Positions 2,377-9,296 of a stretch of DNA of 16,819 bases are shown one piece after another. Positions within the stretch are counted from its first letter, which is position 1. Every line of letters starts with the position of its first letter. Below the pieces are notes generated by a model, which had not been told where the DNA came from, searched no databases, and saw only the letters and a program-made list of their open reading frames with translations. Origin of the DNA: a virus (lineage: Duplodnaviria; Heunggongvirae; Uroviricota; Caudoviricetes); the IMG/VR virus record IMGVR_UViG_2690316062_000004; one strand, 5' to 3'. The position numbers were made by a program, and so were the translations under genes.

Positions 2377-3026
2377 TGACTAGTTTTCTAAAATTGGGTA
2401 TTTTCGAGCGAGAAGCCAAAGCCCCGGAGCTAAATATTAAACAACTTGCACTACTTATGTGTGGGGTAGATCCGACAGTTAAAACTGCTGATATCCCTGA
2501 AGCGAAAGTTGAAGCTTACAATATATACTATCGACAACTGAGTAGATGGTTATCAGCATCTAAATTATTTCGAGGTGGAAACTCAACAGCCTATCCCGCA
2601 GACTATATGTTTGCTCTGGCATATCCTCTTATTGATGAAGATATTACACCACAACCCATAAAGGACAGATGCCTTGCGGCGGTGGCTATAATTGCTAATC
2701 AAAACAAAGGAAAAGAGCATCTTTATGCTATGGGAGGGGATGAGCTTTTACAGGTCGGAATTGCATTGAAAAGCAGCAAACGCGGCTTGCATCGTAAAGA
2801 AGATGAAAAGGAATATAATGATAAATTAATGGGGATGCTGGTCAAGCTTATAGCACATAAGATAGGCCATTCGTTTGGCACCTCTAAAAAACCAAGCATC
2901 TCGGCTATTTTAAACGAACTATATAAATTAGCTGATGAGGAAGGTATATCTAAAACTGGATTATCTAAATCAGCAATATATGAGAAAATTCGAAAGGCAT
3001 TAAATTCGATTTATTATACGGAATGA
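2376..3026 (+). CDS. Hypothetical protein (216 aa), AT-rich, int-coupled cargo gene
   Basis: ATG overlaps the int stop (TAATG at 2374..2378). The gene is visibly AT-rich compared with the neighbouring genes. I recognise no family motif. Confidence 0.6.
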   Translation: MTSFLKLGIFEREAKAPELNIKQLALLMCGVDPTVKTADIPEAKVEAYNIYYRQLSRWLSASKLFRGGNSTAYPADYMFALAYPLIDEDITPQPIKDRCLAAVAIIANQNKGKEHLYAMGGDELLQVGIALKSSKRGLHRKEDEKEYNDKLMGMLVKLIAHKIGHSFGTSKKPSISAILNELYKLADEEGISKTGLSKSAIYEKIRKALNSIYYTE

Positions 3027-3160
3027 ATATTATTTTGCAGTGTTAGTAGGTATTATTTATATTTCATGTGAAAATACTAATTAATTATATTTGTTGGAGC
3101 TTTTGGCGATTCTATGATCGCCAAGGAGATTCAATTGTTATATTTGATGTGTATTACCGT

Positions 3161-3270
3161 TACATTCAACAGCATTCAACAGCATTCAACAGCATTCAAC
3201 AGCATTCAACGACACGTAATGACACGTTATGACACGTAACGGCACCCGACAGCACCTAACAATACCTAGC
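3161..3270. repeat. Eleven 10-bp phased direct repeats (five AGCATTCAAC-type, then degenerate GACACGTAAT-type units)
   Basis: Read directly: tACATTCAAC, AGCATTCAAC x4, GACACGTAAT, GACACGTTAT, GACACGTAAC, GGCACCCGAC, AGCACCTAAC, AATACCTAGC, with strict 10-bp periodicity. Confidence 0.8.
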
Positions 3271-3626: not shown

Positions 3627-3911
3627 ATGCAAAATATAACCTTTACCCCGCCAAATCCTGAACAGCGCCGCACCCTTTTAGAAGAGTACGGCTTTAAGTT
3701 TGATCGCCGAATCCGTGAAGATGAATGCAGCGAGATCACCAGTCTTTCCCGTTCCAGCCGCTGGAAGATGGAGCAGCAGGGGCGCTTCCCTCCGCGCTGT
3801 CACTTTGGCCGCAATAGCTGTGCTTGGCTTCTTTCGGATGTGCTCTGGTGGGTTCGTAATCCGCCAGCAGTAGAGAACGTCAATAACCCATACAGCCGTA
3901 AATCTGCTTAA
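3627..3911 (+). CDS. alpA: AlpA-family (prophage CP4-57-type) transcriptional regulator
   Basis: 94 aa; the SLSRSSRWKMEQQGRFPPR segment is the typical AlpA/Vis-like helix-turn-helix signature. GGAGG RBS at 3619..3623 before the ATG at 3627. Confidence 0.8.
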   Translation: MQNITFTPPNPEQRRTLLEEYGFKFDRRIREDECSEITSLSRSSRWKMEQQGRFPPRCHFGRNSCAWLLSDVLWWVRNPPAVENVNNPYSRKSA

Positions 3912-3931: not shown

Positions 3932-4624
3932 ATGAAAAAGATTAATGCCCTCCACGGGCAGGGATTCGCTCACCCTGTAGCCAGCCAGCACGATATTTCA
4001 GCGAACCGTAAACAGGTTATTTCCGGTGACTGGTCGCCCATTAATCGCGGTGAATTTACGCTTGCCGATCTGGGGTTGCGCCACAACGGTAACGGGCTGG
4101 TGTGGCTGCGTTCCGGCGTGTCCGTGCATGAGGCAGACCATGATGTAGGGATAAGCGGCAAGGACAAGACCAAAGGAAGGGTTAATGGTCTTCCTTTTGA
4201 ATTTGTCGGCCAGTGGCAGGAATACCCGACTAAACGCAGCTTTGCCGTTTCAGTATCTACGGAACTACGCCGCCAGTATTACCCGGACGATGCCACTTTT
4301 GGTAAGGCGATGCGTGAGGCGGGTTATATCCCCGTGCGCACCCGTAAATTGACCGGGAAGCTGGCAAGTTACTGGCTGTATAGAGTAACGGGTAACGATA
4401 AGGGGGTATGCACAGCAGAACCCACGCCCTGCAAGGCTTCCGCGCCAGTTGTCCAGACCATATCTAAGCCTCATCCGTGGTTTAAACGTGTGGCACTCGA
4501 TGGTAAATGGCAGTACGTCTACGCAGATCACATCCGCTTTCTGACGAAAAAGCGTCATCGCGTCGATGGTGTTCGGGTTCAGGGGTATACCGCTGGCGGG
4601 CTGAAAGTGGAGGCTATTGTATGA
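3932..4624 (+). CDS. Hypothetical protein (230 aa), backbone gene of unknown function
   Basis: Long ORF with backbone-like GC content directly after alpA. No motif recognised. Confidence 0.55.
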
Positions 4625-4734
4625 CAGGCAAAACAAAGGCGGCCATGCCGGGCCGCCAGTGCAATACCGCTTTACAGAAACATCGCCAGATTACCAGGCT
4701 TGCCGCTGGTGGTCAAACCTTGAGCCGACGAAAT

Positions 4735-4772
4735 CCGTACGCACAAATTAACCGCGTACGTTTAACGTACGG
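4735..4772. promoter_or_regulatory. CGTACG-based palindrome cluster, possible operator
   Basis: Perfect 8+1+8 inverted repeat CGTACGTT-t-AACGTACG at 4755..4771, plus a further CCGTACG half-site at 4735..4741. Confidence 0.3.
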
Positions 4773-4875
4773 AGATCGAGACAAAGGCGAACAGTATTCG
4801 GGTTCATGGCAAAACAACGTTAAACGTGGTTTAGAGGCTCCGACGAAAAACGTAGAGAGCTGCGAAGATAACCAA

Positions 4876-4945
4876 CCCTCTTTAAGAGGGGAGCCTCTGC
4901 ACAACTCATTAATAGTTGCGCAAAACAGACCCTTTTTAAGAGGGG
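4876..4945. repeat. Two copies of a 16-bp palindromic unit, CCCTCTTTAAGAGGGG and CCCTTTTTAAGAGGGG
   Basis: 15 of 16 positions identical at 4876..4891 and 4930..4945; each unit is a (near-)perfect inverted repeat. They lie just 3' of the minus-strand small gene. Confidence 0.5.
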
Positions 4946-4976
4946 CAGTCCACAGCATTACGGGGAGTAACCCTGT

Positions 4977-5150
4977 TCAGCCTTTTGGCTCGATGCCGCG
5001 CTTATCAAGTTCACGGCGCAAAAGGCGTTTTATCCATCCCGACTTATTATCGTCACCGTCTTCTTTCATCGCTAAAGCGAGCCGCTCTGACAGTTCTTTA
5101 TCGAGTCTGAGCTGCACAACATGGCGCTCTTTATTTTCGCTTGTTGACAT
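4977..5150 (-). CDS. Small ribbon-helix-helix-like DNA-binding protein (57 aa), candidate repressor
   Basis: Internal ATG at 5150 preceded on the minus strand by GGAG. The peptide [57 protein letters not shown] has the strand-helix-helix pattern of Arc/CopG-type proteins. The 38-aa proline-rich extension in the ORF track (start 5264) looks non-coding. Confidence 0.45.
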
Positions 5151-5192
5151 TGTCAACTCCTGTGGTCTAGTCTGTAGTGGAGTTGACAATGT
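5147..5192. promoter_or_regulatory. Perfect 14-bp inverted repeat with 18-bp spacer, covering the RBS and start codon of the RHH gene
   Basis: ACATTGTCAACTCC (5147..5160) and GGAGTTGACAATGT (5179..5192) are exact reverse complements. TTGACA hexamers occur at 5144..5149 and 5183..5188. Confidence 0.6.
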
Positions 5193-5289
5193 ACTACATT
5201 GCATGACTTTTAGTAAAGCAAAGCCCGGCAGTGGTGGAACACTAACCGGGCCTCTAACCACCACCGTTAGCGAAAGTAACGAGGCAGCT

Positions 5290-5481
5290 ATGAAAGATCA
5301 TATCACACACCCGCAAGGGCGGAAGTCCTACATCTGGCGTTTTCTTGCACTGAGCGCCATCGGTCGCAACGTCATTCACATCACAGCTAACACTGAGCGC
5401 GAAGCCCGTGAGCAATCACCGGCTGGCTGCGTGATGGTATGCGCTGGCCGTCTACCAGTTCAGGAGGTTCGCTATGCGTGA
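5290..5481 (+). CDS. Hypothetical small protein (63 aa), first gene of the replication operon
   Basis: ATG at 5290 with GAGG five nt upstream; stop overlaps the next ATG (ATGCGTGA). It is the only plausible part of the 324-aa track ORF. Confidence 0.35.
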
Positions 5482-5668
5482 GCCAATCTGTCTGGAGCAG
5501 GCCGAATATAAATCAGCGCTGGCTTCATCACTTTACGAAACCATCCTGGAAAAAGCCTCTGCTGAATGTTCAGAAACGCTGCTGAATCTGATTTCTATTG
5601 CGTGTGATTTTAATCAGGAAATTCACCGGGCATTAATCGCCGAGCTGCACATGGGAGAGACAAAGTGA
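5474..5668 (+). CDS. Hypothetical small protein (64 aa)
   Basis: Strong AGGAGG RBS at 5463..5468 before the ATG at 5474. Confidence 0.5.
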
Positions 5669-5880
5669 GACAGGTTCCTTTTGAAGTCCTGATGCACGCT
5701 GAAAATGCCCTTTCAGAAAGTGAGTGCGCAATGTCTGTGCTGAGCATGTGGATTGACAGCATTCCCGACGGTGAAGAACACCGTGAGGAAGCGTGCCGTG
5801 TCGGAGCAATTATGTCTCTGCTGCACAAATCTATCGGCGAGCTGGTGAAGGCGCGGGAGGCTTACAGTGCGAAATCCTGA
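5665..5880 (+). CDS. Hypothetical small protein (71 aa)
   Basis: GTG start overlapping the upstream stop (GTGA), with GGGAGAG RBS upstream. Confidence 0.45.
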   Translation: MRQVPFEVLMHAENALSESECAMSVLSMWIDSIPDGEEHREEACRVGAIMSLLHKSIGELVKAREAYSAKS

Positions 5881-6058
5881 AATCAACGATAGCTGGAAGG
5901 ATAAGCGCGGCGAACTGGTCACGGTGAAAGATAACGCATTTAACCGGGTAACGTTTGTGCGTGATGGTTACGATTTTCCGTGCATCTTTCCGCTGGAAAG
6001 GTTCGTTAAAGAGTTCACTTTCGTTAGCTGGGGGCTGAAAGATGAAAAACGCGCCTAA
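5867..6058 (+). CDS. Hypothetical small protein (63 aa)
   Basis: GTG start with GGGAGG RBS at 5855..5860; the 3' end overlaps the primase start. Confidence 0.45.
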   Translation: MRNPEINDSWKDKRGELVTVKDNAFNRVTFVRDGYDFPCIFPLERFVKEFTFVSWGLKDEKRA

Positions 6059-7811
6059 TGTGAAAACCCTCCCGCGCGACAAAATGGAGGAGGCCATCAT
6101 CTTTGCTGGAACGGGAGCATGGAAAGCCGCTCAGGATTACCAGAAAGGCAAGGGCGAGCATGGAGACGATGTTCCACCTGTGGTTCTGGATCACACCCAA
6201 CTGGCGGAATTGCCACACCTGCGCATTGTTGATAAAGGCCGTCGGTTTGCTCGTGTCTGTCAGGCCGGACTTATCGAGCAAAACCAAATCAGCATGATTG
6301 CAAATAAGCTGTGTGAGGCTGGCGTTACCAATGCTGAGTTTATCAACGAAAAAGGTGAGAAAGAGGACTGGACGCCATTAATGAAGCGTTTGGAAGACGA
6401 GCCCCTAATGGTGACTACGAGGGGTAGTGCTACGCCAGCGCTTAACCAGATGGGAGCCAGCCAGCGCGGGGAGGTTCTGCTTGCTCATTACGATGGCAAT
6501 CTGGCGATCCATGCTGATTCTGACACGGTTCATCATTACAACGGCGTGGTGTGGGTTCCGCTTTCGGATAAAGAGCTACAGCGGGAAATGGCGCAAATTT
6601 TTATTGATGCCGAAGTCGCCTATTCGCAGAACGCGATTAAATCCGCTGTCGATACAATGAAGCTGGGTCTGCCAGTGATGGGTAATACAGCCCGAAATCT
6701 TATTGGTTTCAGCAACGGGGTTTTTGATACCCGGTTAGGCCAATTTCGACCGCATGATAAAAAGGACTGGCTTATCGTTGCGAGCGAATTGCCATTCAGC
6801 GAACCAGCAGAAGGAGAGACTCTGGCAACCCATGCGCCGAACTTCTGGAAATGGCTCCGCCGCTCAGTGGCGGATAATGACCGAAAAGCAGACCGCGTAC
6901 TGTCTGCGCTGTTTATGGTGCTGGCGAACCGGTACGACTGGCAGCTGTTTCTTGAGGTAACGGGGCCGGGCGGAAGTGGTAAAAGTGTTATGGCTGAGAT
7001 CTGCACGATGCTGGCGGGCAAGGCCAACACCGTATCAGCGAGCATGGCGGCGCTGGAGAACCCAAGGGAAAGGGCGCTGGTAGTGGGCTATTCGCTGATT
7101 ATCATGCCGGATATGACCCGGTACGCTGGCGACGGCGCAGGGATTAAAGCTATCACTGGCGGGGATAAGGTAGCCATTGACCCTAAACACAAAGCGCCAT
7201 ATTCAACCCGTATTCCAGCGGTGGTGCTTGCCGTCAATAACAATGCCATGTCGTTCAGCGACAGAAGCGGGGGGGTTTCCAGACGGCGGGTGATTTTCAA
7301 CTTCTCCGAAGTGGTACCGGAAAACGAACGCGATCCTATGCTGGCCGAGAAGATTGAAGGTGAGCTGGCTGTAATCATTCGCCACCTGCTCACTCGCTTT
7401 TCCAGGCAGGACGAAGCCAAACAGCTTTTGCATGAGCAGCAGAAATCAGAAGAAGCGCTGGCCATCAAACGTGAAGGGGATTCACTGGTGGACTTTTGCG
7501 GCTACCTGATGGCTTCGGTGGTTTGTGATGGAATGCTGATTGGCAATGCCGAGATCGTGCCATTCAGCCCGCGCCGTTATCTGTATCACGCTTATCTGGC
7601 TTATATGCGGGCTAATGGTCTGAGCAAGCCGGTATCGCTGATGAGGTTCGGTACGGATATGCCAGGCGCAATGGCTGAATATGGCAAGGAGTACCAGAAG
7701 CGCAAAACAAAACATGGCATAAGGTCAAACGTCACGCTTCACGACGACTCAGAAGACTGGATGCCTATGTGGAATGATACATCTCATAACAGTGGAGAAA
7801 ATCAAAAGTAA
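6042..7811 (+). CDS. P4-family primase/replicative helicase (alpha-like, D5/SF3 NTPase)
   Basis: 589 aa; Walker A GPGGSGKS with downstream Walker B-like acidic stretch (LIIMPDMT), the usual layout of phage/plasmid primase P4-family C-terminal domains. Followed immediately by an iteron cluster. Confidence 0.85.
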   Translation: MKNAPNVKTLPRDKMEEAIIFAGTGAWKAAQDYQKGKGEHGDDVPPVVLDHTQLAELPHLRIVDKGRRFARVCQAGLIEQNQISMIANKLCEAGVTNAEFINEKGEKEDWTPLMKRLEDEPLMVTTRGSATPALNQMGASQRGEVLLAHYDGNLAIHADSDTVHHYNGVVWVPLSDKELQREMAQIFIDAEVAYSQNAIKSAVDTMKLGLPVMGNTARNLIGFSNGVFDTRLGQFRPHDKKDWLIVASELPFSEPAEGETLATHAPNFWKWLRRSVADNDRKADRVLSALFMVLANRYDWQLFLEVTGPGGSGKSVMAEICTMLAGKANTVSASMAALENPRERALVVGYSLIIMPDMTRYAGDGAGIKAITGGDKVAIDPKHKAPYSTRIPAVVLAVNNNAMSFSDRSGGVSRRRVIFNFSEVVPENERDPMLAEKIEGELAVIIRHLLTRFSRQDEAKQLLHEQQKSEEALAIKREGDSLVDFCGYLMASVVCDGMLIGNAEIVPFSPRRYLYHAYLAYMRANGLSKPVSLMRFGTDMPGAMAEYGKEYQKRKTKHGIRSNVTLHDDSEDWMPMWNDTSHNSGENQK

Positions 7812-7819
7812 TGGGAAAA

Positions 7820-8049
7820 GTGTTCACCACTATTCACCGTGGATAAAATCGTCTATTTAACAGATAGTTAAGGGGTGAACACTTTTTATTGAAGTGTTCA
7901 CCAAGTATTCACCTGTTCACCTTTAAAGGGTTTTTCTTTTAAAAGGTGAAGGGTTAGGGTGAATACTAGTGAATACTTAAAATTATAGTCTTCACCCTGT
8001 AACCCAATGAATTTAAATAGGAAAAATGCAAAGGTGAACAGGTGAACAC
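7820..8049. repeat. Iteron cluster (TGTTCACC / TATTCACC / CTTCACC and complements), putative replication origin (ori/crr)
   Basis: At least eleven copies in both orientations, e.g. GTGTTCACC 7820..7828, TATTCACC 7831..7838, GGTGAACAC 7874..7882, GTGTTCACC 7895..7903, TGTTCACC 7914..7921, GGTGAATAC 7959..7967, GGTGAACAGGTGAACAC 8033..8049, with an AT-rich tract at 7921..7945. Confidence 0.65.
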
Positions 8050-8450: not shown

Positions 8451-9296
8451 ATGCGAACTAACGATAATTTACAGATGATCAATAAACATCTGGAAGGAGA
8501 GTTTGAACGGCAATTGTTTGACTCTGCGATCTACAATCTTTTAGATGTAAATAATCAACTTCGCTTCAGTAATTATGCCTATGCACTTAGAGAACTATTT
8601 TTACACGTCATAAAACGCATGGCACCTGATAAAAATGTTCAGTCATGTGATTGGTTCCCTGGCTTGAATGAAAGAGAGCAGGTCTCAAGAAAAGACTCTT
8701 ACAAATATATAATCCAGGGTGGGTTAAGTGATGAATATGTCAGGGAAGAGCTTGATGTAAATGTTGCTGGGGTTTTTCCGAGGTTACGTGACGCATTCAA
8801 TTCATTAAATAAATTTACTCACATCAGCGAAAATATTTTCCCAATTAATGATGATGCTGGCCTCCAAATGGTCGGAGAGGTTGAAGGCTGTATCAGCGCT
8901 CTTTTCACCAAGCTTGATGAGTGTCATAAGGAGATAATTAATAAGCTATATGAAGCCGTTAGTGAGGCCGCGATTCATAGTTCGATAACTGAAACTGTAA
9001 CATCAATTGATATTTTATCGACACACAGTTCGGTTGATGAAGTGTATGTTGATGATGTTAAAATAGTAGAAATAAATGATACTGAAATAGTTTTCTCTGT
9101 TATTGGTTCTGTAGGTGTCGGGTTGCAATGGGGATCTAATTCCGATTTGCGAAATGATATTGGTGCTGTAGGTAGTGAGACATTCCCATTTACCTGCGAG
9201 GTGAGAAGTCCAGTGTATGCCCCTGAAAGTTTAGAGTGTGATGAAGGGGCATTCCATGCAGATACTTCAAGCTGGTGGGAAGGGTATTACGACTAA
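8451..9296 (+). CDS. Hypothetical protein (281 aa), second gene of the AT-rich cargo cassette
   Basis: ATG 24 nt after the upstream stop; AT-rich; followed by an intrinsic terminator. Contains an R-x4-H stretch (RELFLH), which is only weak evidence for any fold. Confidence 0.6.
   Translation: MRTNDNLQMINKHLEGEFERQLFDSAIYNLLDVNNQLRFSNYAYALRELFLHVIKRMAPDKNVQSCDWFPGLNEREQVSRKDSYKYIIQGGLSDEYVREELDVNVAGVFPRLRDAFNSLNKFTHISENIFPINDDAGLQMVGEVEGCISALFTKLDECHKEIINKLYEAVSEAAIHSSITETVTSIDILSTHSSVDEVYVDDVKIVEINDTEIVFSVIGSVGVGLQWGSNSDLRNDIGAVGSETFPFTCEVRSPVYAPESLECDEGAFHADTSSWWEGYYD

Follow-up and report, generated by a model that had tools for sequence, protein, structure and literature searches.

The question raised by this locus is whether a perfect 14-bp inverted repeat, one arm of which holds the ribosome-binding site (RBS) and start codon of a small minus-strand gene, acts as an operator in DNA or as a hairpin in RNA. 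The window, by which we mean the entire 16,819-nt stretch of viral DNA that was analyzed, carries ACATTGTCAACTCC at 5147-5160 and GGAGTTGACAATGT at 5179-5192, which are complementary at 14/14 positions across a gap of 18 nt. Read along the minus strand, the left arm gives GGAG-TTGACA-ATG-T (the SD, its spacer, the start codon, and the next base), and the ATG at 5150-5148 starts a 57-aa open reading frame (ORF; 4977-5150). The repeat sits at the divergence point between this repressor-like gene and the rightward replication operon. The initial annotation, made from the letters alone, had described the repeat, its minus-strand reading, and its position in these terms, and each of these descriptions was confirmed. 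It had also assigned the repeat two possible functions, a dyad operator and an RNA hairpin that sequesters the RBS and ATG. On balance, our analysis inclines toward the arms being two inverted operator copies for the adjacent 57-aa RHH-type regulator, bracketing the promoter of the replication operon.

The satellite and its control region

By its gene content, the window is a capsid-forming PICI-type (cf-PICI) satellite. Elements of this kind are recognized by int, alpA, a primase-type replication gene, and their own capsid, protease, portal, connector, HNH, TerS, and TerL genes, as well as by the lack of tail or lysis genes and a size of ~15 kb (10.1101/2022.09.08.507074). Pfam searches of the window identified an integrase (1156-2376), an AlpA-like protein (3627-3911), a D5-type primase in the rightward operon (6042-7811), and, between 9529 and 15889, capsid, S78 protease, portal, head completion protein, connector, HNH, TerS, and TerL genes. 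The window lacks tail genes. The rightward operon also includes a DUF4222 gene, alongside an Icd-like ORF and the primase. The insertion site of the island adjoins yhdJ (E. coli), and a 16.5-kb relative, vB_KppS-Ant, was deposited as an induced 'phage'.

Other features of the island were noted in passing. Perfect inverted repeats of 9-13 bp cluster at 7816-7978, directly after the primase stop (7811), for example at 7816-7828/7874-7886, and this cluster is probably the replication origin of the island. Between the replication and packaging modules, a plus-strand cargo gene (8451-9296) encodes pPIWI-associating nuclease domains (pP_pnuc_1, E=5e-32; pP_pnuc_2, E=1e-36); the same slot in E. coli OW1E2 holds two different hypothetical genes on the opposite strand. 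A 324-aa plus-strand ORF (4507-5481) runs antisense to the regulator gene, crosses the control region, and continues in frame into the Icd-like ORF. Its counterpart (L002 2674-3648) is an annotated CDS in the vB_KppS-Ant record LR881103; the 324-aa ORF is probably an annotation artifact.

The regulator gene (4977..5150, minus strand) is also annotated by RefSeq, as the same 174-nt CDS, in E. coli OW1E2, and the N-terminus MST... is common to more than 100 homologues across Enterobacterales. The AF2 model of the protein (pLDDT 80.7) has two helices (residues 18-31 and 36-51) after an extended N-terminus, with the strand unformed in the monomer. Its top Foldseek matches in the PDB are RHH proteins (NikR N-domain, with probabilities of 0.94-0.97, Arc, CopG, ParG, ParD, MazE, and VapB). 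The accompanying E-values are weak (about 0.6), owing to the small size of the protein. As far as the fold goes, therefore, the RHH-like label that the gene had first been given holds. VVQLRLD, the strand predicted to face the DNA, does not vary among 30 homologues. Pfam, NCBIfam, PHROGs, and PDB sequence searches returned no curated family for the protein beyond a weak profile match to the NikR RHH domain (E=0.035), which is far below the family cut-off.

Two terminator-like hairpins lie behind the RHH gene on the minus strand (4876..4944). They belong to a 22-nt direct repeat (4870-4945), each copy of which contains the hairpin CCCTCTTTAAGAGGG. Because a U-run is missing on the plus strand, transcription from the alpA operon may read through these hairpins and enter the control region. 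In a Tenebrionibacter locus (L017, ~2880-3165), two RHH paralogues stand in tandem.

On the other side of the repeat, the first gene of the rightward operon is the Icd-like ORF (5290..5481, plus strand; NCBIfam NF033153, E=4e-15; RefSeq annotation). It is preceded by a conserved structured leader (5205..5289, plus strand) with two covarying stems, GCCCGG 5223-5228 / CCGGGC 5246-5251 and CGTTA 5265-5269 / TAACG 5277-5281. Across 23 loci, 7/11 predicted leader pairs change on both sides, and the single-stranded CUCUAACCACCA between the stems is conserved. Rfam searches of the whole window at the gathering threshold and of 4900-5600 at E<=10 returned nothing relevant, the only hit being a sub-threshold symR match on the minus strand.

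The repeat, its boxes, and the promoter candidates

Among perfect inverted repeats with a loop of <=60 nt, the 14-bp pair is the longest in the 16.8-kb window. The longest arm in dinucleotide-preserving shuffles (n=300) had a mean of 9.7 nt and reached 14 nt in 1/300. Beyond this site, the window has no copies of the arm sequence or of TTGACAWTGT, and none of the arm sequence in the vicinity of int or alpA, for instance. The perfect 14-bp repeat recurs in Raoultella and in several IMG/VR contigs; in Symbiopectobacterium it is 13 bp plus one G-U, in Photorhabdus an 11-bp core, and in a Citrobacter MAG it has one mismatch. For nine type-A variants, variable columns were counted in the proximal (left) arm (0/14), the distal (right) arm (4/14), and the spacer (12/18). 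Both arms taken together (4/28) differ from the spacer with a Fisher p=0.0004, while the distal arm alone against the spacer gives p=0.07. Conservation of the type-A arms against a variable spacer argues for function and is silent on which one.

To place the arms in a wider context, 43 loci encoding homologues of the 57-aa protein were reduced to 30 distinct control regions. The pentamer CAWTG recurs in these regions at fixed positions: relative to the A of the ATG, its centers lie at -49/-48 in 21/30, at -39/-38 in 24/30, and at 0 in 26/30, and 7/30 have one at +10 (five type-C regions, L011, and L028). The density of CAWTG is 1 per 34 nt in the control regions versus 1 per 378 nt in the flanks. 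Pairs of the form CAWTG-N5-CAWTG number 30 in 240 kb of related loci, with 0.9 expected by chance, and all 30 fall within -60..+15 of the RHH ATG; the window has a single such pair, at 5187. The boxes of the window are D (5197-5201), M (CAATG, 5187-5191), and P (CATTG, 5148-5152), box D lying 10 bp beyond M. Aligned in this way, the two arms of the repeat are boxes M (-39) and P (0) with lineage-specific flanks, which are here identical over 14 bp. Two shorter palindromes overlap the arms, GTTGACA-T-TGTCAAC (7-1-7; 5143..5157), centered on the start codon, and CAATGTA-C-TACATTG (7-1-7; 5187..5201), which is formed by boxes M and D. The pentamer CAWTG comes close to being self-complementary, so that some complementarity exists between any two boxes.

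The right arm also creates GGAG-N6-ATG and a five-codon mini-ORF, MYYIA-stop (5189-5206, plus strand), with which the rightward transcript is predicted to begin, and a counterpart, the MYTIA ORF, is present in some relatives. A leader-peptide reading of the mini-ORF (ATG TAC TAC ATT GCA TGA) was rejected, as the frame is open-ended in L008 and L013.

A strict sigma-70 consensus scan of 4700-5700 gave no site, and the promoter statements that follow thus rest on weaker hexamers backed by conservation; the candidates for the rightward operon (P_R) and for the regulator (P_L) match 8-10 of 12 consensus positions in the window. The -35 hexamer of P_R, TTGACA (5144..5149, plus strand), overlaps the left arm, is the complement of ATG-TCA-A in the regulator gene, and is found in every related locus with an ATG start. 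In the alignment, ATGTCAAC shows no variation at all, even at the third position of the Ser codon, where a change would be synonymous. The P_R -10 candidate (5166..5173, plus strand) may be read as TCTAGT at 5166-5171, with a 16-bp spacer, or as TAGTCT at 5168-5173, with an 18-bp spacer. Relatives have TATATT, AATAAT, TATAGT, or TTTAAT at the matching position, 16-17 bp from TTGACA, compared with which the hexamers of the window are weaker. This -10 candidate is contained in the 18-bp sequence between the arms (5161..5178), which varies from one relative to another. The hexamer also includes the dyad axis of the repeat, at 5169.5. The predicted P_R start is at ~5177-5181, and the right arm would cover ~+1 to +14 of the rightward transcript.

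The P_L candidate (5188..5217, minus strand) consists of a -35 TTTACT (5217-5212), an 18-bp spacer, and a -10 TACATT (5193-5188) that overlaps the right arm. In most related control regions, TACATT precedes the ATG by a constant 37 nt, or by 36 nt in type C, and 18 bp upstream of it the relatives usually have TTTACT, TTTACA, or CTTACT. We regard P_L as the best candidate for the regulator's own promoter, with a predicted start at ~5181, inside the right arm. Additional promoters that would use the TTGACA of an arm as their -35 were rejected: the plus strand has ACTTTT/CTTTTA 16-19 bp downstream, the minus strand has TAAAGA there, and an extra leftward promoter of this kind would start inside the gene. 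Also rejected was a bidirectional promoter with a shared -10, as in type B (TGTACA-17-TAATAT), which would put the mRNA start downstream of the conserved SD and has no counterpart in the window.

Operator, hairpin, and other explanations

Repeated and symmetric sites, namely, the 14-bp repeat and the CAWTG boxes, overlap promoter candidates beside a regulator gene. What the analysis shows is the repeat, where the boxes lie, the fold of the RHH protein, and how far promoter-like hexamers are conserved; from these we infer binding, repression, and transcription starts as follows. RHH dimers would bind boxes centered on CAWTG, the pentamer being the family-wide core of each operator site, and the flanks of boxes P and M would have become identical over 14 bp in the lineage of the window. 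Box P would lie on the P_R -35 hexamer, the complement of the regulator's own ATG-TCA-A. Boxes M and D would lie on +1 to +24 of P_R and also on the -10 hexamer and spacer of P_L, and the right arm would cover the P_L -10 hexamer and start. Once bound, the regulator would silence the Icd-like/primase operon and keep its own production in check, and the overlap with the RBS and ATG would be a consequence of packed promoter geometry, with no translational device. What favors a dyad operator is, among other things, the RHH fold of the neighboring protein with its invariant strand, the fixed position of the boxes, the location of the P_R -10 between the arms, and the predicted P_L start inside the right arm. 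Some observations run against an operator, to which the negative strict sigma-70 scan and the incomplete consensus matches of P_R and P_L also belong. The box flanks differ between lineages yet covary between the arms, despite about 75-100% identity of the protein across lineages; such covariation is predicted by base pairing and not by a simple fixed recognition sequence. The M-to-P distance of 39 bp is no whole number of 10.5-bp helical turns, and the Kosakonia arachidis locus (L021, ~2870-3165) keeps the RHH gene with neither CAWTG boxes nor a leader upstream of it.

Sister elements add to the picture. The E. coli relatives have DNA in common with the window only to the right of ~5215, where they are about 88% identical. 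To the left of ~5215, they carry other small RHH regulator alleles, each with its own repeats at the same place; one of these alleles is 40% identical, with a C-terminal IEPKG common to both, and another is unrelated in sequence and RHH-like by sequence pattern. This limited homology, together with the allele-specific repeats, indicates that the regulator travels with its repeats as a single specificity cassette. In L003, the cassette has 13-nt arms that are 17 nt apart, beside a TTGACAT at the start codon. In the cassette of vB_KppS-Ant (L002), the box GTGRGGGTRCAC occurs three times, a pair of copies flanking the -10 of TTGACG-17-TATAGT, and the RBS and ATG of its regulator are outside the boxes. 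What the three cassettes have in common is thus a repeat that brackets the P_R -10 and not a buried start site. Mosaic joints were seen at ~5215 and at 4977-4995 (L003 2246-2437), the last codons, IEPKG, being common and a different RHH allele with different repeats lying between the joints.

The hairpin explanation holds that a leftward RNA starting to the right of 5192 folds the 14-bp stem and sequesters the regulator SD and AUG, leaving a shorter transcript as the sole template for regulator synthesis; such a hairpin could act alone or on top of an operator function. An RNA with both arms would indeed fold in this way, since the stem is in the MFE structure of 5215-5100 (-32.9 kcal/mol, z=-3.55). 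In modeled -60..+20 RNA, the AUG is paired (P unpaired <=0.03) in 12/20 lineages, and 10 of those 12 have z<=-4, including four type-A loci, L037, L039, and L041 (type C), L013, and L014. When the 14 M-P pairs were scored over 25 control regions, 76% of the cells were complementary versus 26-39% with the partners slid, and 7/14 pairs had changed on both sides; boxes that are near-palindromic and repeated would be expected to give the same picture. The pair in L013 is another one, of 11 bp (ACATTGGTGTT/AACACCAATGT), and L020 keeps the 14th pair as a G-U. However, the only conserved leftward candidate (TTTACT-18-TACATT) would start at ~5181, inside the right arm, and the predicted transcripts have one arm each. 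No sigma-70-like site was found upstream of the P_L candidate, and all neighboring genes to the right of the repeat are on the other strand. The RNA from 5181 folds no better than shuffles (z=-0.55), and in modeled -30..+20 RNA the SD and AUG are mostly open (0.88 and 0.67 unpaired, respectively). L005 has lost the pairing of the SD, most type-B loci lack it, and the repeats of the L002 cassette exclude the RBS and ATG. Complementarity of near-palindromic CAWTG boxes is expected anyway, and likeness of flanks is found as well in pairs that are unable to form a hairpin, such as boxes D and M of L013, which are in direct orientation and have flanks matching at 9/12 positions. We consider the hairpin unlikely. 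Of the two functions proposed at the outset, the dyad operator fits the comparative data, with CAWTG at fixed positions and arms that bracket the P_R -10. The RBS-burying hairpin is not supported by the promoter candidates, although the covariation of the arms between lineages speaks for pairing.

The remaining explanations concern the length of the repeat and the identity of its ligand. It seems improbable to us that the length is a mutational by-product, in which a short core, made up of CAWTG, the TACATT -10, and the ATG context, grew to 14 bp by quasi-palindrome template-switch correction and the extra 8 bp are functionless. The extension is labile among close relatives, as this explanation would have it: it is 11 bp in L013 versus 8 bp in L014, two loci whose proteins differ at a single residue over the 40 N-terminal positions compared; L005 has 11 bp and L004 one mismatch; and many type-B loci have only the 6-bp core. 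Because the proximal arm is fully constrained by the SD, ATG, and -35, only the distal copy needs explaining. That copy, however, is kept at 13/14 positions in L020 and as an 11-bp core in L005, though most of the spacer has changed, and long complementary flanks have at least two independent origins (type A and L013). It is very unlikely, in our estimate, that the repeat is instead the site of another dimeric protein, be it the AlpA-like regulator (3627-3911), a protein of the host, or an inducer from a helper phage. What speaks for such a site is the role of AlpA in Gram-negative PICIs, where it switches on island genes and induction depends on it (PMC6092414; 10.1101/2022.09.08.507074), and the weak P_R -10 of the window would suit an activator-dependent promoter. 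Against this, the type of repeat goes with the RHH allele rather than with the other parts of the island, a second arm copy is absent from the window, near int and alpA among other places, and the spacer has no LexA-type CTGT-N8-ACAG, its CTGT-N8 being followed by another CTGT. The AlpA gene is 1.2 kb from the repeat, and nothing ties AlpA to the site.

Known systems and the biology of cf-PICIs

An operator for the 57-aa regulator can be compared with several known switches. In P22 immI, the RHH repressors Mnt and Arc act on the close-set opposed promoters Pant and Pmnt, and one bound protein can affect both. The control region studied here is like it in having a small RHH regulator, putative symmetric operators in tightly overlapping opposed promoter candidates, and a regulator gene transcribed away from the operon that it would control. 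It differs from P22 in that the relation is at the level of fold only (Arc, Foldseek E~0.7), that there is one regulator where P22 has two, and that the box is CAWTG. The P22 operon encodes an antirepressor, whereas that of the window encodes an Icd-like protein and the primase. CopG of pMV158 is an RHH protein with a single 13-bp operator element, and the NikR operator, GTATGA-N16-TCATAC, has two half-sites 16 bp apart. Both are RHH proteins that act on pseudo-symmetric DNA overlapping a promoter. The 16-bp gap between the NikR half-sites is near the 18 bp of the window, and the NikR RHH domain is the best match of the 57-aa protein in both sequence and fold, but NikR spaces its two RHH dimers by a C-terminal tetramerisation domain, which the 57-aa protein lacks.

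RNA-based systems offer likenesses of another sort. In RBS-sequestering 5'-UTR hairpins, such as attenuators and RNA thermometers, a stem holds the SD and AUG, as the stem of the window would; unlike those, a perfect 14-bp stem with an 18-nt loop would amount to a near-permanent block with no obvious release. The rightward leader followed by an Icd-like ORF resembles P1 immI (c4-icd-ant), where c4 precedes icd, and its layout also recalls the CI RNA immunity of P4, but it has no match to the Rfam C4 model. Whereas the immunity factor of P1 and P4 is an RNA, the element in the window additionally has a divergent protein regulator with repeats.

The Stl proteins are larger and of the helix-turn-helix type, whereas the 57-aa protein is smaller and unrelated to them in sequence. 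The likeness to Stl/Rpr of Gram-positive PICIs (SaPIs) is one of arrangement, with a divergent regulator adjoining int that would silence replication and packaging genes (PMC6092414). For Gram-negative capsid-forming PICIs, the existence of a repressor is treated as unclear in published PICI work. Literature searches on PICIs and cf-PICIs turned up neither a repressor nor an RHH protein of the kind sought, and a search of cf-PICI papers, including 10.1101/2022.09.08.507074, for 'repressor' and related words found no mention. Most likely, the repeat belongs to a conventional type of switch, in a kind of satellite for which no repressor had been described before.

A broader proposal, which we put forward tentatively and regard as rather doubtful, is that these cf-PICIs owe their maintenance repression and immunity to the 57-aa RHH protein together with its CAWTG boxes, that they are exchanged as a specificity cassette, and that the extended repeat doubles as a DNA operator and as a start-blocking hairpin in read-through RNA. 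If the RHH protein binds the repeats, it would be a candidate for the repressor that silences this family of Gram-negative cf-PICIs. A defined operator and regulator would open the question of how helper phages induce these islands, and would also bear on why the same replication operon is found with different regulator cassettes between islands.
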